DNA from: an uncultured Bacillales bacterium
Lineage (GTDB): Bacteria; Bacillota_I; Bacilli_A; RFN20; CAG-826
Assembly (NCBI GenBank): GCA_946612115.1
Contig: CAMOEI010000001.1
Location: forward strand, 130,936 to 194,935
DNA length: 64,000 nucleotides
Direction of reading: 5' to 3'
Part shown: one piece after another, positions 1,923-43,740 of the stretch
How positions within the stretch are numbered: the stretch's first letter is position 1
How the letters are laid out: every line of letters starts with the position of its first letter
The notes under the pieces: generated by a model
Databases searched by the model: none
What the model was told of the DNA's origin: nothing
What the model saw: only the letters and a program-made list of their open reading frames with translations
Program-made: the position numbers and the translations under genes

Positions 1923-2009
1923 TAACTCCACATTTTTTTAATTTAATTAATGAAATAATTAAGAAAGTTGACTAAAATTATAACTAAGAAAGAAGGACAT
2001 AATAACTAT

Positions 2010-3470
2010 ATGGCAAATTTGAAAGAAAGAATTTGTATTATTGGTGGTGGACCAGCTGGTCTTTCTGCTGCGATGTATCTTGAGAAAAAAGGATACGAAA
2101 ACTATGTTATTTATGAAAAATTAAACAAAGTTGGCGGAAAATGTTGGTCTCCAAAAATGAAGGTCAAACATAATGGTGTCGAAGAAGAAAAGAGTTTCGA
2201 AACCGGTGCGATTATGGGCGCCATTACCTATCACGCAGTTAGCGAGATGGAAGAATTTGGTGGCTATTATCACTGTGGACCACAATGGGCTGAAAAAGAG
2301 CCTAACATGAGAAGAGAATTCCGTACATTAGATGGTAAAGTCGATGAATGGAATAATCCAAAAGTTGATTTTAGCTTCAAAAAACTCTTTGGTTTATTAA
2401 AACTTAAGAAACAAATGAAGAAACTCAACAAGATCATGCAAACCAAATATAAAGGTTATGACTGCTATGGTCACTTAGGTGTTGCTAAAGGTGAATATTA
2501 TGGTATCTCCAAAGGTGTCGATGGATATTGCGGAGCAACCAAAGAAGATTCATTCCCTAACTACATCAAAGGAACAAACCCAAATCTTAAAGATTTAGCA
2601 TTACCATTCTCTGAATTCTGTAAGATTAACGGTGTTGAAGAAGTCCAAAGAATTTGGATCGCTCCATTCACCAGCTTCGGATATGGTTATTTCGATGAAA
2701 TCCCAGCCGCATTAGTCATGAAATATCTTGACGTTACTACCGCGATTGAATTCGTTCACATGGGATTATGGACATGGCCAGAAGGAACTCAACAAATCTA
2801 CGTTCACGTTAACGAAAAATTAAAACACCCAGCAGTGTTAGAAACTGAAGTCGTTAAAGTTGAAAGACCTGATGGAAAGATTAAAGTCACCATCAAAGGT
2901 AAAGACGGAAAGACCAAGGTTGAAGAATTCGATAAATTAATCGTTACTACCCCACTTGATTACTTCAAGGATTATGCGGACGCTAGCGATGAAGAAAAAG
3001 AATTATTCTCCAAGATCGTTCACGAAAGATATATTGACTATATCGCTACCTTCGAAGAAGGTAAATCACCAAATATTTCTGGTTACTTAGTGGAAAACAT
3101 GGTCCCAGAAAGATTAGGCCACGCGATGGTTTATTACAATAGATGGCAATATCTTGATAGAGACTGCCCAGCTACTGTTTACGCCTTAGCTAACCACACT
3201 GGAGATCCAGACAAGAAATATGAAGATGTCCAAAAGATGATGGACGAAGATATGGCCAGAGTCGGCTTCCCAATCAAAGAAAAACACTTTGCTCAAGAAG
3301 TTTATTACTGCCCACACGTTTCTTGTAAGGATTACGCTGAAGGATGGTATGACCGCCTCGAAGCTTTACAAGGTTATAAGAACACCTATTACGCTGGAGA
3401 AATTCTCTCCTTCGGTGATATGGAAGATACTTGTGCCGCTAGTAAAGATATCATCGGTAGATTCTTCTAA
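2010..3470 (+). CDS. FAD/NAD(P)-binding flavoprotein of the amine-oxidase / protoporphyrinogen-oxidase / phytoene-desaturase superfamily
   Basis: N-terminal Rossmann dinucleotide motif ICIIGGGPAGLSAAMYLEKKGY...EKLNKVGGK. About 490 aa. The ORF-track start at 1968 is a TTG; the first ATG (2010) is preferred. First gene of the candidate glycoside-ester module. Confidence 0.6.
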   Translation: MANLKERICIIGGGPAGLSAAMYLEKKGYENYVIYEKLNKVGGKCWSPKMKVKHNGVEEEKSFETGAIMGAITYHAVSEMEEFGGYYHCGPQWAEKEPNMRREFRTLDGKVDEWNNPKVDFSFKKLFGLLKLKKQMKKLNKIMQTKYKGYDCYGHLGVAKGEYYGISKGVDGYCGATKEDSFPNYIKGTNPNLKDLALPFSEFCKINGVEEVQRIWIAPFTSFGYGYFDEIPAALVMKYLDVTTAIEFVHMGLWTWPEGTQQIYVHVNEKLKHPAVLETEVVKVERPDGKIKVTIKGKDGKTKVEEFDKLIVTTPLDYFKDYADASDEEKELFSKIVHERYIDYIATFEEGKSPNISGYLVENMVPERLGHAMVYYNRWQYLDRDCPATVYALANHTGDPDKKYEDVQKMMDEDMARVGFPIKEKHFAQEVYYCPHVSCKDYAEGWYDRLEALQGYKNTYYAGEILSFGDMEDTCAASKDIIGRFF

Positions 3471-3486
3471 GAATAATCAAATAACT

Positions 3487-3512
3487 AAGCCCTCACTAGA
3501 GGGCTTTTTTAT
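3487..3512 (+). terminator. rho-independent terminator
   Basis: agccctc-acta-gagggct hairpin followed by tttttatttttc. Confidence 0.6.
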
Positions 3513-3578
3513 TTTTCTACAAAACTTTACAAATATTATTATTTATATATAATAAATAGACTATAGGAGGAAAATACA

Positions 3579-5447
3579 TTGAATAACTCTAGTGCTGTTA
3601 AACCAAAACAAAAAGTAGCAAATTCTAAAATAAAAGTTCCAGTGTTCTTCACTGTTGATGATAACTATATTCCTTTTATGACAATCACCTTAAAAAGTAT
3701 TGTCGATCACTCAAAGAAAAACATCATATACGAAATCTATGTCATTCATAGCGGACTTTCCGTTGAAAGTAAAAGAAGAGTCAAAGCGGTCACCAATAAG
3801 AAAAACTTTGTTTTTCATTTTGTTAACGTCTTCTTAAAAGTTCAAAATCTAGCGATTAGATTAGATGTTAGAGATTATTACACATCTTCAACATATTATC
3901 GTTTATTCTTGCCAGATTTATTCCCGCAAATCTCTAAAGCGATTTATATCGATAGTGATATCGTTGTTAGAGAAGATATCGCTAATTTATTTAATATCGA
4001 TTTAGAAGATAAATTATTAGGCGTTGTTCCTGATGGATCAGTCCAAATTTATCCTGAATTTATCAAATATGTTGAAACTGTTATCGCAGTTGACCACAAA
4101 GAATACTTTAACGCTGGGGTTTTATTAATGAACTTTAAAGGCCTAAGAGCGTTTAAATTTGAACAAAAATGTTTCAAATTGCTCTCTAAAGTCTCCTTCA
4201 AAGTAGCTCAAGACCAAGATATTTTAAACTTCATTACCAAGGGTAAAGTTAAATTTATAGACCCTAGATGGAACGTTATGCCTTTAGGAGAAAAAGTCGA
4301 AGATCCATATCTAGTTCACTATAATTTAATCCTTAAGCCTTGGAAACATGAAAATATCATGTATGAAGAATATTTCTGGGACGTCGCTGAAAAGCTCAAT
4401 CTCAAATATGAACTTTATGGAAGAATGATGCTCATCCCTAAAGAATTAAAAGAACAAGATTTCTTAGGAATTGAAATGGTCAAAAAGCTCTGTTTAGCGG
4501 AAGTAGAAAAAGTCGATACATATTACGCACCTATATATTCGCAAAAAGATATTATTGAAAGAAGAAATAGACAAAATTTATTTGAAGAATTGTCTTTCAA
4601 GAATATGAATTACCCACATCACGGGGAACGTCAAGCAATCTTAGATAAGATTGTGGAATATGAAAAGGCTGGCAAATTCGATCAAGATGTCGAAAATGAT
4701 CCACCATATAAACCAATTACTGTAGAAGGAATTGATTTCTTAAGAAAGAAACCACATAACAAATTTAAAAGTGCATTCGCTAATTGGTATTCCTTTAAAT
4801 ATTTCAATCATTTAATCGATAAAGGACAAATCATTATTGATGGCTATGAAGGAGTTCATAACTTAAAAGAAGTGACCACAGGAGCGGTTATTACTGCGAA
4901 TCACTTCTCCCCATTTGATAGCATTCCTTTACACAAGATCTTTAAGCAAGTTAAAAAGAATCGTAAACTCTTTAAAATTATTCGTGAAGGAAATTATTCC
5001 TTCCCAGGACTTTACGGTTTCTTTATGAGAAACTGTAACTCCATCCCTTTAGCGAGCAATTTAGAAGTTATGAGACATACTTTAAATGCGATTGACACGG
5101 TTTTATCTCGTGGGGATTATTTACTCGTTTACGCTGAACAATCGATGTGGTGGAATTATAAAAAACCAAAACCAACCAAATTAGGAGCCTTTAAGTGGGC
5201 TAGTAAAAATAATGTTCCTGTCATTCCTACTTTTATTACGATGAGAGATACAGGTGCTTTAGACGGAGAAGGATTCCCAATTAAAGCTTATACTTTACAT
5301 ATTCTTCCTGCCATTTATCCAAAAAGTAACCTTTCTATTGGAGAAAACGCTTTATATTTAAAGTCGGAAAACGATAAGGCTTGGAAAGAAGTCTATGAAC
5401 GAGTGTATGGAGAAAAACTTACATATCTATGTAATGAGGACAAATAA
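3579..5447 (+). CDS. bifunctional glycosyltransferase family 8 (N-terminal) / lysophospholipid-type acyltransferase (PlsC/LPLAT, C-terminal) fusion protein
   Basis: N-terminal domain has GT8 hallmarks: VFFTVDDNYIPF, the DxD motif YIDSDIVV, and NAGVLLMN. C-terminal domain carries the LPLAT HX4D motif (ITANHFSPFD) and FPGLYGFF/ VYAEQS motifs. TTG start at 3579 with AGGAGG 8 nt upstream. Stop overlaps the next gene (TAATG). Confidence 0.65.
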   Translation: MNNSSAVKPKQKVANSKIKVPVFFTVDDNYIPFMTITLKSIVDHSKKNIIYEIYVIHSGLSVESKRRVKAVTNKKNFVFHFVNVFLKVQNLAIRLDVRDYYTSSTYYRLFLPDLFPQISKAIYIDSDIVVREDIANLFNIDLEDKLLGVVPDGSVQIYPEFIKYVETVIAVDHKEYFNAGVLLMNFKGLRAFKFEQKCFKLLSKVSFKVAQDQDILNFITKGKVKFIDPRWNVMPLGEKVEDPYLVHYNLILKPWKHENIMYEEYFWDVAEKLNLKYELYGRMMLIPKELKEQDFLGIEMVKKLCLAEVEKVDTYYAPIYSQKDIIERRNRQNLFEELSFKNMNYPHHGERQAILDKIVEYEKAGKFDQDVENDPPYKPITVEGIDFLRKKPHNKFKSAFANWYSFKYFNHLIDKGQIIIDGYEGVHNLKEVTTGAVITANHFSPFDSIPLHKIFKQVKKNRKLFKIIREGNYSFPGLYGFFMRNCNSIPLASNLEVMRHTLNAIDTVLSRGDYLLVYAEQSMWWNYKKPKPTKLGAFKWASKNNVPVIPTFITMRDTGALDGEGFPIKAYTLHILPAIYPKSNLSIGENALYLKSENDKAWKEVYERVYGEKLTYLCNEDK

Positions 5448-6067
5448 TGTACTTTTTAGCAATTATTTTAATTTGTAGTTTTATAATCTATCTCCCTCAT
5501 GCGATTATCAATCCATGGAACTTACCTAATCCGTGGTTATATTATTTTCTCGCAGTGGCCATCTACGTTATTGGAGAAGTTATTTTAGACGGAGTTATCG
5601 CTTTTATTATTCGTCGACTCCCAGAGAAGTGGATGAATCCAAGAAAAGGGATGATTCATGCCAGCGATAAAGAACTTAAGTTCTTAAAAGCTATTAAAGT
5701 CGAGAGTTGGAAGCGTTTCATGCCTGATTTAGGAATGTTTACCAAATTCCAAAAAGGAAAATTAGATGATCCATATAATAACGAATATATTCATCGTTAT
5801 ATTGTTGAAGCTAGTTATGGGGTAGTGATCCATTATTTAAGCGTTCCATTCGGCTTTTTGATTCTTTTACTCGGATTAATCGAACCAAATAACTTGACGA
5901 CGTGGTCAATAGGTTTACCAGTTATCTTTGTTAACTCAGTCTTGATTCTCGCCCCGGCGTTAACATTAAAATATAACATTCCTCGTCTATTAAGGATTTA
6001 TGACCTTAATGAACGATTAAAAGCGAAAAAAGAGGCTAAATTAGCTAAAGAAAACGAAAATAAATAA
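5447..6067 (+). CDS. 4-TM membrane protein resembling the CrtO family (glycosyl-4,4'-diaponeurosporenoate acyltransferase)
   Basis: 206 aa with four hydrophobic helices. Cytoplasmic loop W..R..PDLG and C-terminal KYNIPRLLRI resemble the S. aureus CrtO motifs W.HKILDG and QRYNRPRLTQLLRI; this comparison is from memory, not a computed alignment. Translationally coupled to the GT8/LPLAT gene. Confidence 0.45.
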   Translation: MYFLAIILICSFIIYLPHAIINPWNLPNPWLYYFLAVAIYVIGEVILDGVIAFIIRRLPEKWMNPRKGMIHASDKELKFLKAIKVESWKRFMPDLGMFTKFQKGKLDDPYNNEYIHRYIVEASYGVVIHYLSVPFGFLILLLGLIEPNNLTTWSIGLPVIFVNSVLILAPALTLKYNIPRLLRIYDLNERLKAKKEAKLAKENENK

Positions 6068-6078
6068 TTAGACAAAAG

Positions 6079-6120
6079 AAATGGATGTAAAGAGAAATTA
6101 ACATTCATTTTTTTCTTTTT
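6079..6120 (+). terminator. rho-independent terminator
   Basis: aaatggatgt ... acattcattt hairpin followed by a long T-run. Confidence 0.5.
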
Positions 6121-6189
6121 CTTGCAGTATATCTACTTAATAATTATTATTTATATAGCGTGTACATATTAATTAAGGACTAAATAATA

Positions 6190-7827
6190 ATGACTATTGC
6201 AGAAAAAATTGTTCATTTAAGAGTTGTTAATAATATTTCTCAAGAAGAACTCGCAACTAAACTTAACGTTACTAGACAAACAGTCAGTAAGTGGGAAAGC
6301 GGAGACACTCTTCCTCAATTAGATAAAGTTAGCGAACTTTGTGAATTATTTAAAATAACCGCTGATGAATTAATTAACGATAATGTTGTTATCCATCGCG
6401 GAAAGCAACTAGTGCCAAGCATTGGAGAAGATGTGAAAACCAAATATTTTGGCACTGATGGCTTTAGAGGAGAGGTCAATAAAGTATTAACTTGTGACCA
6501 CGCCTATAAAATCGGTCGATTCTTAGGATGGTTTTACGGAAATCCAAAATATAACGGACAAAAACCAGGATATCGACCAAAGGTTGTTATCGGTAAAGAT
6601 ACCAGAAGATCTTCATATATGTTAGAGTATGCGGTCGCTAGTGGATTAGCGGCTAGTGGAGCGGATGTCTGTTTACTTCACGTAACGACTACACCAAGCG
6701 TTTCTTACATAGTAAGACAAGACTATTTTGACTGCGGAGTAATGATTACCGCAAGCCACAATCCTTTCTATGATAACGGAATTAAAGTTATTAACTGTAA
6801 CGGAGAGAAATTAGAAGACGCAGTTGCAGTATTAATCGAAGCCTATATTGACGGAGATTTAAAGAAATTAGGTGTTGAAGGAGATGACCTCCCATTCGCG
6901 GAAAGAGGAGAAATCGGTCAAATCATCGATTATAGCTCCGGAAGAAATCGATACATTGGTTATCTCATCTCATTAGCAAAACACTCCATGAAGAGCCTAA
7001 AAATCGGCTTAGACTGCGCTAACGGGGCGAGCTGGATGATTGCCAAAAGTGTTTTTGACGCTTTAGGAGCCCAAACCTTTGTTATTAATAACAATCCAGA
7101 TGGTTTAAATATTAATTTAGATGCTGGAAGTACACATATTGAAAATTTCTGTAAATACGTTAAACAAAATAAACTAGATCTCGGCTTTGCCTTTGACGGA
7201 GACGCTGATAGATGTATCGCTGTAGATGAATCTGGTAGAGAAGTTGATGGAGATAAGATTATGTACTTATTATCCAATAAACTTAAAGCGGAAGGCTCAT
7301 TAGACAAAGACACATTAGTAACGACAATTATGTCTAACTCAGGTCTATTTAAAGCCTTAAAACAAGTTGGGATTTCTGTCACACAAACTAAGGTTGGAGA
7401 CCGTTTCGTTTACGAAAGAATGCAAAATGAAGGCTATGCCTTAGGTGGAGAGCAATCCGGTCACATTATCATTAAAAAGTATGCGACTACTGGAGATGGC
7501 ATCTTAACTGCGATTATGGTCACTGAAGAAGTATTAGAAAGAAAAGCAAAGCTTTCAACTTTAGTTGCCCCAGTTAAGCTCATCCCACAAGTCACTAAAA
7601 ACGTTAGAGTGACTAATAAGGCTGCAGTTATCGCTGATGAACTTGTTCAAGCTAAATTTAAAGAAGTGAATGATGAAATCGGAGATAATGGAAGAGCGTT
7701 ATTAAGACAAAGTGGAACTGAACCAGTTGTTAGAATAACAATTGAATTAGATAATAAAGCCAAAGTTGATGAATATGTCGAAAAGATTTATAACGTCATC
7801 AAGAAAAGAGGATATATCTGTGAATAA
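6190..7827 (+). CDS. glmM: phosphoglucosamine mutase with an N-terminal XRE-type helix-turn-helix domain (HTH::GlmM fusion)
   Basis: Residues 1-63 form a classic HTH_3 (ISQEELATKLNVTRQTVSKWESGDTLPQLDKVSEL). From about residue 85 the sequence is GlmM: KYFGTDGFRGEVN, the active-site serine loop ITASHNPFYDNGIK, DGDADRC, and GGEQSGH. Single uninterrupted ORF. Confidence 0.8.
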   Translation: MTIAEKIVHLRVVNNISQEELATKLNVTRQTVSKWESGDTLPQLDKVSELCELFKITADELINDNVVIHRGKQLVPSIGEDVKTKYFGTDGFRGEVNKVLTCDHAYKIGRFLGWFYGNPKYNGQKPGYRPKVVIGKDTRRSSYMLEYAVASGLAASGADVCLLHVTTTPSVSYIVRQDYFDCGVMITASHNPFYDNGIKVINCNGEKLEDAVAVLIEAYIDGDLKKLGVEGDDLPFAERGEIGQIIDYSSGRNRYIGYLISLAKHSMKSLKIGLDCANGASWMIAKSVFDALGAQTFVINNNPDGLNINLDAGSTHIENFCKYVKQNKLDLGFAFDGDADRCIAVDESGREVDGDKIMYLLSNKLKAEGSLDKDTLVTTIMSNSGLFKALKQVGISVTQTKVGDRFVYERMQNEGYALGGEQSGHIIIKKYATTGDGILTAIMVTEEVLERKAKLSTLVAPVKLIPQVTKNVRVTNKAAVIADELVQAKFKEVNDEIGDNGRALLRQSGTEPVVRITIELDNKAKVDEYVEKIYNVIKKRGYICE

Positions 7828-8494
7828 GTTAAATATTAAAACTTCTGAATTATTTCACACTGAAGAAACCTATTTAAGAGAAGTCTTCAATAATTCGACT
7901 TATCCTTGGGAAATTCTCCCTCAAATCAAAGAGATTTGTAAAAGAGTCCTAGAAAGTGGTTTACCAGGGTATCACCTTCTAAAAGAAGGAGTGTTAGTAG
8001 GAGAAAACGTTAAAATCTCTCCTTTCGCCACAATTGAACCGCCTTGCATCATCGGAAAAGACACTGAACTTCGTCCAGGAGCGTTTATTAGAGGAAATGT
8101 CATCATTGGAGAAAGCTGTGTCATCGGTAATTCAAGCGAATTAAAAAATTCAATATTATTGAATCACGTCCAAGTTCCACATTATAACTATGTTGGAGAT
8201 TCAATCTTAGGAGATTACGCTCATATGGGAGCGGGATCAATTCTCTCAAATTTAAAAAGTGGAGGTAAAAACATTACCATTCACGGAGATAAAGAATATG
8301 AGACTGGTTTAAGAAAAATCGGAGCGTTCCTTGGAGAACACGCTGATATTGGATGCGGAAGCGTTCTTAATCCAGGAACCATCATTGGTAAAAACACCAA
8401 TGTCTATCCATTAAGTATGTTAAGAGGGTGCTATCCAGAAAATAGCATCGTCAAAGAAAACAACAAAGTTGTTGATAAAGATTTAAATCGATAA
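7820..8494 (+). CDS. stand-alone left-handed beta-helix (hexapeptide-repeat) acetyltransferase, GlmU C-terminal-domain-like
   Basis: Hexapeptide repeats throughout (IIGKDTELRPGAFIRGNVIIGESCVIGNSSEL...). The likely start is the GTG at 7820 with a GAGGA RBS, overlapping the glmM stop; the ORF track extends the frame back to 7766. Confidence 0.55.
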   Translation: MNKLNIKTSELFHTEETYLREVFNNSTYPWEILPQIKEICKRVLESGLPGYHLLKEGVLVGENVKISPFATIEPPCIIGKDTELRPGAFIRGNVIIGESCVIGNSSELKNSILLNHVQVPHYNYVGDSILGDYAHMGAGSILSNLKSGGKNITIHGDKEYETGLRKIGAFLGEHADIGCGSVLNPGTIIGKNTNVYPLSMLRGCYPENSIVKENNKVVDKDLNR

Positions 8495-8510: not shown

Positions 8511-9233
8511 ATGAAAGTAGTTGTCGGCACAAATGAAGAGATCAGCAAGCAAATTGCTGAAGAATTTATCAAACAAGTTCAAAAGAAACCAAATTCAGTT
8601 TTAGGTTTAGCCACAGGAACATCCCCATTACAAGTCTACGCAAATCTGGTCGAGGCTAATAAAAGTGGAAGAGTTTCCTTTAAAGATGTTGTGACATTTA
8701 ATCTAGATGAATATATCGGATTAGAAGGAACACACAATCAATCTTATCGATATTTCATGAATGAAAATTTATTCAATCACATCGATATCGATAAATCTAA
8801 GACCCATGTTTTAAAAGGTGTTGGTGATTATTTGGATTACGCTAATAAATACGATGATTTAATCGCTTCCTTTGGCGGAATTGATTTACAAATCCTTGGT
8901 ATTGGTAGTGATGGACATATCGCTTTTAATGAACCAGGCACCTCATTTGATAGTCTTACTCACGTTGCCGATTTAGCGGAATCAACTATTGTTGATAACT
9001 CTAGATTATTCAATGATATCTCAGAAGTTCCTACTAAAGCAGTGACCATGGGATTAAAAAGCATTATGAATGCGAAAAAGATTGTCTTGATCGCTACTGG
9101 TAAAAACAAAGCTAAAGCCATTAAAGAATTATTAACTGGCGATAAGAGCGAAGAAAATCCTGCTAGTGTTCTTATCGATCATCCAGATGTCACCATCTAC
9201 GTCGATAAAGATGCTTATAGTTTAGTTAAATAA
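8511..9233 (+). CDS. nagB: glucosamine-6-phosphate deaminase
   Basis: MKVVVGTNEEISKQIAEEF...LGLATGTSPL...ILGIGSDGHIAFNEPGTSF is the canonical NagB/6-phosphogluconolactonase fold. RBS GGAGG upstream. Confidence 0.85.
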   Translation: MKVVVGTNEEISKQIAEEFIKQVQKKPNSVLGLATGTSPLQVYANLVEANKSGRVSFKDVVTFNLDEYIGLEGTHNQSYRYFMNENLFNHIDIDKSKTHVLKGVGDYLDYANKYDDLIASFGGIDLQILGIGSDGHIAFNEPGTSFDSLTHVADLAESTIVDNSRLFNDISEVPTKAVTMGLKSIMNAKKIVLIATGKNKAKAIKELLTGDKSEENPASVLIDHPDVTIYVDKDAYSLVK

Positions 9234-9252
9234 ACTAATTTATAAAAAATAA

Positions 9253-9279
9253 GGTGGAAATTATTTCCGCCTTTTTTTA
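9253..9279 (+). terminator. rho-independent terminator
   Basis: ggtggaaa-ttat-ttccgcc hairpin followed by ttttttt. Confidence 0.55.
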
Positions 9280-9289
9280 TTATTAACAT

Positions 9290-23218: not shown

Positions 23219-23254
23219 TGTAGATATTTATTATTTTTTTAGTATAATAAATGC

Positions 23255-23458
23255 GTTCGATGAATTAGAGGAGTAATCAAAACTTCTTCTTATAGAGAGC
23301 TAGGGACGGTGGAAGCCTAGTAGAAAGGTTTGATGAAGGTCGCTAAGGAGAACTGATTCTAATAATTTAGAGTAATGAAGTGCTAGTGAAATATCACTAG
23401 AACTAAGGTGGTACCACGTTAATCGCGTCCTTAGAAATAAGGACTTTTATTTTATTTA
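23255..23458 (+). promoter_or_regulatory. T-box riboswitch leader of valS (promoter -10 TATAAT at 23243-23248; T-box sequence; terminator/antiterminator)
   Basis: Conserved T-box sequence aactaAGGTGGTACCACGtt at 23399-23417. Intrinsic terminator gtcctta-gaaa-taaggac plus T-run at 23426-23455. A GTC (Val) codon at about 23339 in the putative specifier region. Lies in the 250-nt untranslated gap before valS. Confidence 0.7.
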
Positions 23459-23468
23459 GGAGGGTCTT

Positions 23469-26057
23469 ATGTTAGAAAAAAGATATTCCCCAAAAGATGT
23501 TGAAGCGGGTAAATATGAAACCTGGAAATCAAAAGGTTACTTTACCGCTGGAGATAAAAGTAAACAGCCATTTTCTATGGTTATTCCTCCACCAAACGTC
23601 ACTGGTAAATTACATTTAGGTCACGCTTGGAACACAACTATTCAAGATATCATTGCCCGATATAAAAAGATGAAGGGCTATGATGTTTTATGGCTTCCAG
23701 GAATGGATCACGCTGGCATTGCTACCCAAGCAAAAGTTATGCAAAAGCTAGTTTCTATGGGAGTGGATGTCACTAAAATTACTAGAGAAGAATTCTTAAA
23801 ATACGCTTGGGAATGGAAAGCAGAATACGCAGAAAATATTCACCAGCAATGGGCGAAAATGGGCTTAATGCTCGACTTTAGTCGAGAAAGATTTACTTTA
23901 GACGAAGGACTTAATCTCGCTGTTAGAAGAGTGTTCGTCGATTTATATCAAAAAGGGCTCATTTATCAAGGAGAAAGAATTATCTCTTGGGATCCAGTCC
24001 AACAAACAGCTTTAAGCAATATCGAAGTCATTCACCAAGATGATGAAGGCTATATGTATTACTTCAAATATCATCTCGTTGATAGCGATGAATATATCGA
24101 AGTAGCGACAACTAGACCAGAAACAATGTTTGGAGATGTCTGTGTCTGTGTCAATCCAAAAGATCCTCAATATACTCATATTCACGGTAAAAAAGTGATC
24201 AATCCTGCAAACGGAGAAATCATTCCAATTATTTGTGATGAATATGTTGAAATCGGTTTTGGAACAGGAGCGATGAAATGTACTCCTGCTCATGACCCAA
24301 ATGACTTTATCATCGGTAAAAAATATGGTTTAGAAATGCCAATCATCTTTAATAAAGATGCAACGATGAATGAGAAGTGCGGCAAATATCAAGGAATGGA
24401 TCGATTTGTCTGTCGAGAAGCCTTGTTAAAAGATATTGATTCTCGAGGCGATTTTATCAAAAAAGAAAAGATCGTTCACGCGGTTGGACACTCCGAAAGA
24501 AATAACTGTGTTGTTGAACCAATGCTTTCAAAACAATGGTTTGTCAAAATGAAACCATTAGCGCAAGCGGCCATCGACGCTCAAAAGAATGAAAACTATG
24601 TTAATTTCGTTCCAAAAAGATTTGAGCATACATTCCTCCAATGGATGGAAAACATCGAAGACTGGTGCATTTCTCGTCAATTGTGGTGGGGTCATAGAGT
24701 CCCAGCTTGGACTAACAAAGTTACTGGTGAAGTTTTAGTGGCGATGGAAGCTCCTAAAGATATTGAAAACTGGGAACAAGATAGCGATGTCTTAGATACT
24801 TGGTTTTCTAGTGGATTATGGCCGTTTTCCACATTGGGTTGGCCAAATGAAACCGAAGATTATAAGAGATATTTCCCAACCTCAGTGTTAGTTACTGCCT
24901 ACGACATTATTTTCTTCTGGGTTAGTAGAATGATTTTCCAATCACTTAATATTACTGAGAAAAAACCATTTGAGAATGTAGTCATTCACGGACTTGTCCG
25001 TGATGAAAAAGGTCGTAAGATGTCTAAATCACTAGGTAACGGTATTGATCCAATTGAAGTTATCGATCAATACGGTGTTGATGCGCTTAGATATTTCTTA
25101 ACGACTAATTCCACTCCAGGACAAGACATGAGATATATCGATGAAAAAGTCTCTAGTAGTGCAAATTATTTAAACAAGATTTGGAACTCTGCTAGATATG
25201 TTTTAAGCGTCATCCCAGAAGATTATAAAGAAGTGGAGTTAGATCCAAAGAAATTAACTAGTGTTGACCGCTGGATTTTAAATAGACTAATGATGACGAT
25301 TAAAAATGTCACAAACAACATGGAGAAGTACGATTTCAATGCCGCTAGCAGCCACTTATATAACTTCGTCTATGATGATTTCTGCTCTCAATATCTAGAA
25401 ATGAGTAAAGTCAAACTCAATAGTGACAACGAATTTGAAATTAATCAAACTAGAACAATCTTATTGAAATGTCTTAAAGACATTATCTTACTCATTTATC
25501 CTTACACTCCATTTATCGCTGAAGAATTATATCAAAATCTTCCAACTCACTTAGAAAGCATCATGCTTGAAACTTATCCAGTCGTTGAGAAGAAATTTGT
25601 CTCTAAATTAAGTGATAACGAAGTGAACTTATTATTCGATTTTATTAAAGAAGTTAGAAACTATAAGATCGTTAACGGTTTATCTCCTAATGCGAATCTA
25701 GATTTAACAATCGGATTAAAGATTGAAGTCAGCGATGATTTCTATCTCTATTTGAATAGATTCACCTTTACCGAAGTTAAAACAGCAAAAGAGCCATTAA
25801 GCGGAAGTGGAGAAATATTCTCTTATCCATTTGGTAGCTTGCTCATCTCCTCGGGAGCGAATAAAGAAGAGATGATTTCTAAACTACAAAAGCAAATCGA
25901 AGTCGAAGAAAGTGAAATTTCTCGAGGCGAAAAAATGCTTTCAAATCCAGGCTTCTTAGCCAAAGCCCCAAAGGAAAAAGTGGAGTCTGAAAAAGAAAAA
26001 CTAGCTCTCCACAAAGCCAACTTAGCGAGCTTAAAAGAAAAATTATCAAAAATTTAA
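23469..26057 (+). CDS. valS: valyl-tRNA synthetase
   Basis: HIGH (PPPNVTGKLHLGHAW) and KMSKS motifs. 862 aa with C-terminal coiled-coil. RBS GGAGGG. Confidence 0.95.
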   Translation: MLEKRYSPKDVEAGKYETWKSKGYFTAGDKSKQPFSMVIPPPNVTGKLHLGHAWNTTIQDIIARYKKMKGYDVLWLPGMDHAGIATQAKVMQKLVSMGVDVTKITREEFLKYAWEWKAEYAENIHQQWAKMGLMLDFSRERFTLDEGLNLAVRRVFVDLYQKGLIYQGERIISWDPVQQTALSNIEVIHQDDEGYMYYFKYHLVDSDEYIEVATTRPETMFGDVCVCVNPKDPQYTHIHGKKVINPANGEIIPIICDEYVEIGFGTGAMKCTPAHDPNDFIIGKKYGLEMPIIFNKDATMNEKCGKYQGMDRFVCREALLKDIDSRGDFIKKEKIVHAVGHSERNNCVVEPMLSKQWFVKMKPLAQAAIDAQKNENYVNFVPKRFEHTFLQWMENIEDWCISRQLWWGHRVPAWTNKVTGEVLVAMEAPKDIENWEQDSDVLDTWFSSGLWPFSTLGWPNETEDYKRYFPTSVLVTAYDIIFFWVSRMIFQSLNITEKKPFENVVIHGLVRDEKGRKMSKSLGNGIDPIEVIDQYGVDALRYFLTTNSTPGQDMRYIDEKVSSSANYLNKIWNSARYVLSVIPEDYKEVELDPKKLTSVDRWILNRLMMTIKNVTNNMEKYDFNAASSHLYNFVYDDFCSQYLEMSKVKLNSDNEFEINQTRTILLKCLKDIILLIYPYTPFIAEELYQNLPTHLESIMLETYPVVEKKFVSKLSDNEVNLLFDFIKEVRNYKIVNGLSPNANLDLTIGLKIEVSDDFYLYLNRFTFTEVKTAKEPLSGSGEIFSYPFGSLLISSGANKEEMISKLQKQIEVEESEISRGEKMLSNPGFLAKAPKEKVESEKEKLALHKANLASLKEKLSKI

Positions 26058-27084: not shown

Positions 27085-27215
27085 TAATTATATCTTATGA
27101 TATATTACTTTCGTTGTCGCCTCACTAGCTACAACCGCATAGAAGAGGTTTTCAAAACTTTAACGAAGTTACCTTCATAGCGAGTCCTTAGTGAAATCTC
27201 AAAAAAGGAGGGACA
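27085..27215 (+). promoter_or_regulatory. candidate ribosomal-protein L21 leader (autoregulatory 5' UTR of the rplU-prp-rpmA operon)
   Basis: About 130-nt structured untranslated region immediately upstream of rplU. An L21 leader occupies this position in Bacillota. Not verified against a covariance model. Confidence 0.35.
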
Positions 27216-41766: not shown

Positions 41767-43740
41767 ATGAAAGAAATTGACAAATTAAGCATCGCAACGA
41801 TCCGTAGCTTATGTATCGACATGATTAATAAGGCTAATTCCGGACACCCAGGAATGGCTCTTGGCAGTGCGCCAATCCTTTATACCTTATTCACTAAGCA
41901 TTTAGTTAGTGACCCTAAGGATCCAGAATGGATTAATAGAGACCGTTTTGTCTTATCTGCAGGACATGCTTCTAGCTTGCTATACACCATGCTCCACTTA
42001 AGTGGATATGAAGTTAGCCTAGATGATTTGAAACAATTTAGGCAAATCGATTCGCTTACTCCAGGACACCCAGAATATCACTGGACAAAAGGCGTCGACG
42101 CTACTAGTGGACCTTTAGGTCAAGGTATAGCTCAAGCAGTTGGTATGGCTTTAGCGGAAGAATCTATCGCTGCCAATTATAACGAAGGCAAGAGAATTAT
42201 GGACCATTACACATATGTTTTATGCGGGGATGGATGTTTACAAGAAGGCTTGTCCCAAGAAGCAATCAGCTTTGCTGGACACCAAAAATTAAACAAATTA
42301 ATTCTTTTCTATGATGCAAATGAAGTCACATTAGATGGCTCACTTGATTTGTCGTTCTCTGAAAATACAAAATTAAGATTTGAGGCTAGTGGATGGAAAG
42401 TCTTAGAAGTTAAAGATGGAAACGATGTTGAAGCAATCGATAAAGCGATTGAAGAAGCAAAGAAATCCAAAGATAAGCCAGTGATGATTTTAGTTCACAC
42501 TGTTATCGGCTATGGTAGTGCAAAACAAGGAACATCTAAAGTTCATGGTTCTCCTTTAGGAGCGGAAGATGGACACCACGCCAAAGTTGATGTTTATGGA
42601 TTTGATCACGAAGATTTCTACGTTCCAGAAGAAGTGAGAAAACATTTCCAAGAAACATTTGTTTCTAGAGGCGAAAAAGCTCACGAAAAATATAATAAAG
42701 ATTTCGAATCATATCGCAAAGACCATAAGGCTGACGCCGAACGTTTCGAATCCTTAAAAGGATTAGATATTTCTAAATATGTTCCAGAAGAAATGCCAGA
42801 TTTCGTTAGTGGAAGCGCAACTAGCACCCGTGTTGCTAGCGGAAAAGCATTAAATGCTTATATGCTCAATGTTCCAATGCTCGTCGGTGGATCTGCTGAC
42901 GTTGCCGGAAGCGTTATGACTAAATTAGATAACGGAGTTAATTTTGCTCCAGGTCATAGAGAAGGCCACAACGTCAACTGGGGAATTAGAGAATTCGCTA
43001 TGGGATGTATGCAAAACGGTATGCTCCTCCACGGTGGAATTCGTAGTTATGTTGGCTGCTTCGCTGTATTCAGCGATTATATGAAACCTGCCATTAGAAT
43101 GGCGGCGTTAAGCCACTTACCAGGTATTTATTTATTCTCTCATGATAGTATCGCTGTTGGAGAAGATGGTCCAACTCATCAACCAATTGAACAATTAGCG
43201 ATGTTAAGAAGCATTCCTAACGTTAACGTTATTCGACCAGCGGACGAAAGAGAAACATTCGCTGCTTGGAAGATTGCTCTTAAGAGCACTAAAACTCCAA
43301 CTGCCTTAATCCTCTCTAGACAAAATCTTCCATTATTAGAAGGAAGTAGTGCTGAAGGAGTTGAAAAAGGTGGATATGTTGTCTCCTACGAAAAGAAGAA
43401 AATCGACTTAGTGTTAATCGCTACTGGTAGTGAAGTTAGTTTAGCAATTGAAGCTCAACAAAAGCTTCTTGAAAAGAAGATTGATGTTAGAGTAGTTTCT
43501 TTACCTTCTTGGGAATTATTTGCTGCTCAAGAACCTTCTTATAGAAAAGAAGTTTTACAATTACCAAGTGAAAGAAGAGTCTCTGTTGAGATGCTTTCAA
43601 CCTTTGGTTGGGGCAAATGGGCTAAATACCATATGGGCTTAGACAATTTCGGTGCAAGCGCTCCAGCAAAAGACGTCATTAAGAAATTTGATTTCACAAG
43701 CGACCATTTAGTGGCAATGTGTGAAGAAATTTTGAAATAA
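41767..43740 (+). CDS. tkt: transketolase
   Basis: TPP-binding motifs (GHPGMALGSAPILYTLF, GDGCLQEG..). 657 aa. RBS AAGGAG. Confidence 0.9.
   Translation: MKEIDKLSIATIRSLCIDMINKANSGHPGMALGSAPILYTLFTKHLVSDPKDPEWINRDRFVLSAGHASSLLYTMLHLSGYEVSLDDLKQFRQIDSLTPGHPEYHWTKGVDATSGPLGQGIAQAVGMALAEESIAANYNEGKRIMDHYTYVLCGDGCLQEGLSQEAISFAGHQKLNKLILFYDANEVTLDGSLDLSFSENTKLRFEASGWKVLEVKDGNDVEAIDKAIEEAKKSKDKPVMILVHTVIGYGSAKQGTSKVHGSPLGAEDGHHAKVDVYGFDHEDFYVPEEVRKHFQETFVSRGEKAHEKYNKDFESYRKDHKADAERFESLKGLDISKYVPEEMPDFVSGSATSTRVASGKALNAYMLNVPMLVGGSADVAGSVMTKLDNGVNFAPGHREGHNVNWGIREFAMGCMQNGMLLHGGIRSYVGCFAVFSDYMKPAIRMAALSHLPGIYLFSHDSIAVGEDGPTHQPIEQLAMLRSIPNVNVIRPADERETFAAWKIALKSTKTPTALILSRQNLPLLEGSSAEGVEKGGYVVSYEKKKIDLVLIATGSEVSLAIEAQQKLLEKKIDVRVVSLPSWELFAAQEPSYRKEVLQLPSERRVSVEMLSTFGWGKWAKYHMGLDNFGASAPAKDVIKKFDFTSDHLVAMCEEILK

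Follow-up and report, generated by a model that had tools for sequence, protein, structure and literature searches.

BirA, PutA and NadR are trigger enzymes that carry a DNA-binding domain of their own. Archaeal RbkR is likewise an enzyme with a covalently attached DNA-binding domain (PMC5397151). BzdR combines an XRE-type helix-turn-helix (HTH) with a shikimate-kinase-like domain without detectable activity, and its evolution has been modelled by the Q1 chimera, in which the BzdR HTH is joined to the active shikimate kinase of E. coli and the product is both enzyme and regulator (PMC3602430). Here, we analysed a gene of this general design in a 64,000-nt stretch of DNA from an uncultured Bacillales bacterium (assembly GCA_946612115.1, contig CAMOEI010000001.1, positions 130,936 to 194,935), which we call the window and to which all positions refer unless another locus is named. 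The gene (6190..7827, + strand), which sits on a 381,778-bp metagenome scaffold, joins an XRE-family HTH domain to phosphoglucosamine mutase (GlmM). Our best explanation, to which we assign a probability of about 0.55, is that it encodes a bifunctional trigger enzyme, an active GlmM whose XRE domain binds the promoter of its own operon, made up of HTH-glmM, an LbH acetyltransferase gene and nagB.

Canonical glmM belongs to a cdaA-cdaR-glmM operon, and canonical GlmM moonlights by inhibiting the c-di-AMP cyclase. Known control of the GlmM step is post-translational or RNA-based, through the glmS ribozyme, GlmR and the interplay of CdaA and GlmM. Full-text literature searches returned no description of an HTH-GlmM fusion.

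Like BirA, PutA, NadR and RbkR, HTH-GlmM joins an apparently active enzyme to a DNA-binding domain, and it has a candidate operator at the genes of its own pathway. It differs from them in fold, which is XRE here and winged helix or ribbon-helix-helix there, as well as in enzyme and pathway (UDP-GlcNAc precursor supply); ligand control of DNA binding has been demonstrated for those four systems and would be a prediction for HTH-GlmM. With BzdR and Q1 it shares the succession of XRE HTH, linker and enzyme-type domain. The catalytic residues are intact in HTH-GlmM, whereas natural BzdR has lost catalysis, and the BzdR module is a small kinase fold as compared to the 460-aa dimeric mutase found here. 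HTH-GlmM appears to be the natural equivalent of Q1, standing at the evolutionary stage that the chimera represents. NagC and Mlc (ROK family) and MurR and NanR (RpiR-SIS) also combine an HTH with a sugar-phosphate-binding, enzyme-derived domain and act on amino-sugar genes; however, their sensors are non-catalytic paralogues beside a separate housekeeping enzyme, and they have no sequence relationship to HTH-GlmM.

Architecture of the HTH-GlmM protein

A sequence-only reading of the window had described a continuous gene in which an HTH of residues 1-63 is followed by a linker of about 20 residues and an intact GlmM core, and our results agree with it in each of these points. The open reading frame (ORF) starts with ATG and encodes 545 aa without an internal stop. 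The XRE/Cro-C1 HTH domain (residues 1-63; 6190..6378, + strand) is marked out by Pfam HTH_3, by helices in an AlphaFold2 model, and by the ratio of nonsynonymous to synonymous substitution rates (dN/dS). HTH_3 (PF01381) matches residues 14-61 with an E-value of 1.7e-13 and 50.8 bits, where the gathering score is 23. The model has a mean pLDDT of 87.9 and a pTM of 0.82, with a confident GlmM body, and folds the HTH into five helices at residues 3-13, 18-24, 29-37, 44-54, and 58-62 (pLDDT 80-94). The recognition helix reads VTRQTVSKWE in the window; the underlying pattern, RQ(S/T)xSKWE, is typical of DNA-binding XRE proteins and is conserved among relatives. A flexible linker follows (residues 64-84; 6379..6441, + strand), which is modelled without secondary structure and with pLDDT below 50 at residues 71-81. 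It holds a weakly conserved D-x-(I/V)-x-I-x-R, while its length and sequence differ between relatives.

The GlmM core occupies residues 85-545 and the stop codon (6442..7827, + strand). Pfam places PGM_PMM_I to IV at residues 85-535, and the NCBIfam equivalog model TIGR01455 (glmM) matches residues 87-538 with 491.8 bits against a cut-off of 447.55. All catalytic loops can be read: the phosphoserine loop TASHNP (Ser189, codon 6754-6756), the metal (Mg) loop DGDADR (Asp336/338/340), the sugar loop GEQSGH (Glu421), and the phosphate loop RQSGTEPVVR (from Arg506 to Arg515). When the protein is aligned with unfused GlmMs, Ser189, Asp336/338/340, Glu421, Arg506, Ser508, and Arg515 show no variation. 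The closest solved structure is B. subtilis GlmM (7ojr, E-value 2e-115), whose match begins at query residue 85. Canonical Firmicutes GlmM (7ojr; 3pdk of B. anthracis; 6gyz of S. aureus) has the same four-domain phosphohexomutase fold and the same catalytic motifs. Because the alignments of these three solved enzymes begin only at query residue 84-85, the extra domain is absent from the closest solved GlmMs. Judged by sequence and model, a DNA-binding domain and an enzyme competent for catalysis appear to be united in one polypeptide.

The intact core bears on a different reading, namely that the protein acts purely in regulation and uses its GlmM body as a ligand sensor only, comparable to BzdR, NagC of the ROK family or the RpiR-SIS proteins, with a separate housekeeping GlmM elsewhere. 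Enzyme-derived sensor domains are common in regulators, BzdR being an example (PMC3602430), but we consider this reading quite unlikely for HTH-GlmM. The catalytic and ligand-binding motifs are invariant, the score lies above the GlmM equivalog cut-off, and the enzyme part has a dN/dS of 0.02-0.1. In addition, the gene shares an operon and overlaps with the gene for the enzyme of the next pathway step, no second PGM-family gene was found within the 64-kb window, and none of the 80 best genome hits held a fused and an unfused copy in one genome. The intact motifs and the equivalog score also led us to reject assignment to the BzdR-type class, in which an XRE HTH is combined with a catalytically dead, enzyme-like sensor.

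At 6421-6435 (GGAGAAGATGTG), the window has an in-frame GTG (Val82) behind a Shine-Dalgarno-like GGAG, four codons before KYFGTDG. This codon could yield free GlmM by internal initiation, or it could be the relic of an ancestral glmM ribosome-binding site. As a feature of the family, an internal start that releases free GlmM was rejected, since the GTG behind GGAGAA is found in the window only.

Spread and descent of the fusion

The fusion is found in many uncultured Bacilli and Clostridia of gut and rumen. A homologue search with the fused protein listed at least 120 protein clusters that have the same 545-aa architecture with both domain sets, at 79-100% identity; the cluster names, where given, read 'MAG: phosphoglucosamine mutase [Bacilli bacterium]'. 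In a scan of GTDB species, for which one genome per species was searched and the best 80 loci were kept (individual loci carry L numbers below), about 56 of the 80 hold the full fusion at 56-86% identity. The carriers on the Bacilli side (L001-L012) are labelled Bacilli, Bacillales or Erysipelotrichaceae and have a GC content of 33-38%. Those on the Clostridia side, with 33-58% GC, bear labels that include Acutalibacteraceae, Oscillospiraceae, Christensenellaceae, and Ruminococcus, with one labelled Lachnospiraceae. The start ATG is conserved at all loci and is preceded by an in-frame stop 3-90 nt upstream, except in L041. A search of a representative library was uninformative on breadth, as fused proteins were collapsed there under unfused cluster representatives and residues 1-84 were covered by no match, and the HTH alone as a query returned almost only short fragments of fused proteins at contig ends.

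Selection and descent were examined among these relatives. In 11 pairs compared by the Nei-Gojobori method, dN/dS is 0.015-0.12 for the HTH and 0.019-0.095 for the enzyme part; purifying selection acts on both to a similar degree. In a neighbour-joining tree built from the enzyme part only, the fused genes form essentially one clade, within which the Bacilli-labelled set is one branch. The unfused genes of L054, L055, and L059 nest within the fused clade. For example, the unfused GlmM of L059 (L059:5690-5770) opens with MTTGEKTSALHQPTGAAKYFGTDG, so that its protein starts MTTGEKTSAL... and then passes directly to KYFGTDG; by its sequence, this gene is an in-frame deletion of the HTH that has left the first residues of the domain as a remnant. 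The overall picture suggests a single origin of the fusion with occasional secondary loss of the HTH.

A few protein records looked like stand-alone pairs of xre and glmM (P0391, P0479, and P0508). They were rejected as such, because in each of them a fused gene has been disrupted by a single in-frame stop codon (TAG or TGA) or by a frameshift, and they therefore provide no 'Rosetta stone' evidence. Among the broken copies, L202 carries TAG in frame at the lysine of the junction, and L206 is frameshifted. The palindrome that we call motif A (described below) is retained in front of them, exactly in L203 and with one mismatch in L202 and L206.

The earlier reading had held that the gene is no assembly join of two genes, which is borne out by the fusion in at least 120 clusters and about 56 of the 80 best species loci with its start ATG conserved; a frameshift separating a small upstream regulator from glmM would have spoken for two genes, and the separate-ORF entries proved to be broken fused genes. 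We regard an artefact, in which mis-assembly, a missed frameshift or a gene-calling error joined a small regulator to glmM, as effectively refuted. The few entries with the parts as separate ORFs could be quoted in its favour, together with the N-terminus that the NCBI pipeline once trimmed (P0274, 504 aa); but the former carry a single in-frame stop or frameshift with motif A kept upstream, and the ORF is continuous in hundreds of independent assemblies from two classes.

Two side observations concern these records. In L203 (L203:3001-4614), and also in L204 and L205, an in-frame TGA takes the place of a conserved glycine (AYRV*RFLGW). Direct reading showed this TGA in L203 (JGI) and in L204 (ENA), two loci of separate sample origin, and the truncated product P0479 is on record on 6 contigs. 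The gene is either a circulating pseudogene or one with a recoded stop. P0274 is the L017 gene as given at NCBI, where the start is set at an internal Met so that only the PGM domains are on record. Because this record cuts off part of the HTH, the fusion is under-reported in annotations.

Palindromes at the fused-gene promoters

When the 160 nt 5' of each fused gene were lined up, a 15-bp palindrome emerged, GCAAC-N5-GTTGC, with a T run before it and an A run after it (motif A). In 42 loci there is a single exact copy each, in every case 5' of the fused gene. With up to one mismatch allowed and up to 350 nt upstream considered, motif A is present at 47 of 57 fused loci as compared to 0 of 19 unfused ones (Fisher p = 5e-11). 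Elsewhere in the 877 kb of loci, there is one exact copy, with 0.84 expected. The HTH-less genes of L054, L055, and L059 have lost motif A, and L059 keeps a degenerate half of the palindrome upstream. The shared occurrence and joint loss of the HTH and motif A lend support, at the level of the family, to DNA binding and to regulation of the protein's own operon.

Promoters and transcription starts are consensus predictions throughout this work. In the Clostridia clade, the -35 element of the best promoter-like match begins 29-32 nt past the centre of the palindrome in 29 of 43 loci, which centres motif A at about -65 relative to the putative start, and a conserved GTTG(C/G)TTG overlaps the -35 element in this branch. 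In L002-L005, motif A lies between the -10 element and the ribosome-binding site, with its centre at about +11 in three of them. Two other roles for motif A were rejected on general features of such signals: a terminator, as the T run precedes and the A run follows, and a promoter for an extracytoplasmic function sigma factor, as no -10 CGTC follows TGCAAC.

We also scanned metagenomes for the palindrome (GCAAC-N5-GTTGCAAAA). The 120 matches listed cover 786 kb of DNA and are mostly chance matches from unrelated environments, and no regulon was definable from them; only two, L168 and L199, were informative, and these adjoin the only genes in the list that resemble the HTH described here (49% and 40% identity, respectively). 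The recognition helix of L168, VTRQTISKWE, is one residue off that of the window. In both cases the HTH is fused to membrane domains and not to GlmM, and the gene starts lie 85-110 nt downstream of the palindrome, a placement for which the chance of either is about 0.05. These two genes suggest a palindrome tied to the HTH subtype rather than to glmM. Their products (L168:1552-2452 and L199:1299-1977) consist of an HTH of the form MTIGEKI...RQ.ISKWE and multi-pass membrane domains, one of them with a weak match to DUF6320, and they may point to a broader group of HTH-membrane proteins that regulate themselves through a shared motif A operator.

The same data speak to a reading in which the HTH is a protein-protein or localisation module without DNA binding and the palindrome belongs to another factor. 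XRE-fold domains with partners other than DNA are known, as in RodZ, whose XRE-like domain binds MreB. We consider this reading very improbable here, as the RQ(S/T)xSKWE recognition helix is conserved, the palindrome and the HTH co-occur and are lost together, and motif A stands beside two other genes with this HTH subtype.

The sequence-only reading had proposed direct control of the downstream module by the enzyme itself, possibly with sensing of a metabolite. The sensing would be conjecture. Direct control was strengthened at the level of the family, where motif A marks the fused promoters and is absent without the HTH, but the promoter of the window has no motif A. Instead, the window carries motif B (TGTAAAGAGAAATTAACA, 6086..6103), a near-palindrome TGTAAA-N6-TTAACA (pattern TTWACA) that is a candidate operator or activator site. 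Downstream of it lies a putative sigma-70 promoter (6122..6150, + strand) with -35 TTGCAG (6122-6127), a 17-nt spacer, and -10 TATTAT (6145-6150). This was the top-ranking promoter-like sequence in the stretch from motif B to the ATG; it rests on consensus match only and was missed by a simpler scanner. The pattern TGTAAA-N6-TTWACA has its sole match in the 64-kb window at this site, with 0.02 expected, and no further match in an extra 3.8 kb of L081. When eleven upstream regions of the Bacilli clade are aligned, motif B stands out as their sole conserved block. It was present in 17 of 17 loci examined from this clade, among them the nearest relatives (94% and 91% identical). The centre of motif B precedes the best -35 element by 16-19 nt in L002-L009 and by 27 nt in the window and L001, a difference of about one helical turn. 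In the window, the centre is at about -63 relative to the putative start, which is the position held by motif A in Clostridia.

Some loci connect the two motifs. L031 has a hybrid site, GTAAA-N5-GTTGC, at the usual position of motif A about -125 from the ATG, and L006 (L006:2494-2511) has TGTAAC-N6-TTTACA exactly where L002-L005 carry motif A. The A-type and B-type half-sites thus seem interchangeable in these hybrids, which hints that one protein may bind both. Set against known consensus sequences, motif B fits neither cre (CcpA) nor GlnR/TnrA, whose site has 17 bp as compared to 18 bp here, and it fits neither the CRP/FNR spacing nor the direct repeats of WalR/PhoP. We give even odds to motif B being the HTH-GlmM site. 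Control of the own operon is accordingly graded differently for the two levels, as well supported for the family via motif A and plausible for the window via motif B.

Several observations weigh against the trigger-enzyme explanation. No motif A lies upstream of the fused gene in the window, and the lone one-mismatch match in the 64 kb, at 41794, is intragenic and no more than chance would yield. Each half-site of motif B departs from motif A at two positions that are invariant among the exact motif A copies, the spacing of motif B is longer by 1 bp, and both motifs occur together in nine loci (L002-L005, L013, L015, L016, L021, and L034); in the last five, motif B lies about 74 nt upstream of motif A. 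Because half-sites and spacing differ and both motifs coexist, a different regulator may bind motif B. Beyond the operator, the disordered linker of the model offers no obvious route for an allosteric signal from the active site, and the carriers are all uncultured and known solely as metagenome assemblies.

Much of this evidence would fit a protein that binds DNA but not its own promoter here. Motif B would then belong to another regulator acting from about -63, for example a global one or one of nitrogen or amino-sugar metabolism, and the HTH-GlmM of the window would act on motif A-type sites elsewhere or be regulatory dead weight. Motif A is absent from the window, L001, L006-L012, and L207-L210, and lineages that have it show almost the same recognition helix as those that lack it; the near-identical helix of L168 adjoins motif A, so that the HTH of the window would be expected to prefer sites of that type, and the nine loci with both motifs point the same way. 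However, purifying selection on the HTH persists without motif A (dN/dS 0.07-0.11 for the window against L001 and L006), the hybrid half-sites of L031 and L006 stand at homologous positions, and motif B occurs at no other promoter in the sequence scanned. On balance, we hold this alternative to be unlikely.

The operon and its possible control

The glmM-LbH-nagB module downstream was found as the earlier reading had claimed, and it forms a compact unit. A Shine-Dalgarno-like AAGGA (6175..6179, + strand), read from the sequence, stands 10 nt before the ATG at 6190. The LbH acetyltransferase gene follows (7820..8494, + strand), with matches to Pfam Hexapep and to NCBIfam Arch_glmU at profile positions 204-391 only. 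Its product resembles only the acetyltransferase half of archaeal-type GlmU/ST0452, and its best matches in the PDB are 5z09 and 2ggo at chain residues 241-389. The start of this gene is ambiguous (7766-7827): gene callers use ATG 7769, which gives a 59-nt overlap with glmM, but the start is probably GTG 7820 behind AGAGGA, with an 8-nt overlap with the glmM stop (GTGAATAA), and a start of this type is called in the 94%-identical relative L207. The nagB gene for glucosamine-6-phosphate deaminase (8511..9233, + strand; TIGR00502, 275.4 bits against a cut-off of 236.9) starts 16 nt past the LbH stop behind GGAGG. An intrinsic-terminator-like hairpin (9251..9283, + strand), with a 10-pair stem followed by TTTTTATTAT, a T run, is the probable end of the operon. 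LbH is the next gene in 49 of 56 full-length fused loci, and nagB comes next in many. The unit would connect fructose-6-phosphate and glucosamine-6-phosphate (GlcN-6-P; NagB), GlcN-6-P and glucosamine-1-phosphate (GlcN-1-P; GlmM), and the step from GlcN-1-P to N-acetylglucosamine-1-phosphate (LbH).

The 5' neighbours of the fused gene vary between loci, so that this gene is the first of a transcription unit of its own. This sets it apart from canonical glmM, and cdaA or cdaR was found beside neither the fused nor the unfused relatives. The leader upstream of the fused gene matched no Rfam family. In the window, a cluster of three genes (1968-6067) directly precedes it: 1968-3470 codes for a desaturase of the amine-oxidase/CrtN-like type, 3579-5447 for a 622-aa protein in which a GT8 glycosyltransferase is fused to a PlsC-type acyltransferase, and 5447-6067 for a CrtO-like glycosyl-carotenoid acyltransferase. 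As a whole, the cluster is reminiscent of a pathway of the glycolipid or staphyloxanthin type, here in the genome of a gut member of the Bacilli. Farther away, the window holds a T-box leader at 23251-23435 (113.5 bits), upstream of an 862-aa ORF at 23469-26057, and a ribosomal protein L21 leader at 27123-27198 (42.1 bits).

For the trigger-enzyme explanation, we propose the following mechanism. XRE domains require a dimerisation partner. GlmM is essential for the supply of peptidoglycan precursors and is dimeric in solution (PMC6368335); because GlmM enzymes are dimers, the enzyme body would supply dimerisation for the XRE domains. Two flexible tethers of 20 residues would then set the two HTHs on palindrome half-sites that lie 10-11 bp apart. 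The operator would be motif A in most of the family, while in the branch of the window motif A would have been replaced or lost, with motif B as the conserved site. A site near -65 in a fixed register would be an activator-like position and a site at +11 a repressor-like one, and the sign of regulation may differ between branches because the sites occupy these two positions.

The explanation can be extended to a flux sensor, although we regard this extension as rather doubtful. Here, HTH-GlmM would be the sole essential GlmM of the cell, and occupancy by GlcN-6-P, GlcN-1-P or glucosamine-1,6-bisphosphate, or the phosphorylation of Ser189, would alter how the HTH engages the operator, with the protein acting as an activator from about -65 and as a repressor from about +11.

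These proteins are labelled plainly as 'phosphoglucosamine mutase' in annotations, and their HTH is sometimes trimmed. The predicted operators make the idea of self-regulation testable with purified protein. As an essential enzyme, GlmM stands at the beginning of the routes to peptidoglycan and UDP-GlcNAc. If our explanation is true, HTH-GlmM would be a living example of an early stage between enzyme and transcription factor that has so far been built in the laboratory only, as BzdR Q1. It would also mean that a direct feedback loop from enzyme to promoter exists in a large set of uncultured Firmicutes from gut and rumen. Under the more doubtful flux-sensor extension, transcription of the operon would be set directly by the demand for UDP-GlcNAc precursors, as a protein counterpart of the glmS ribozyme.

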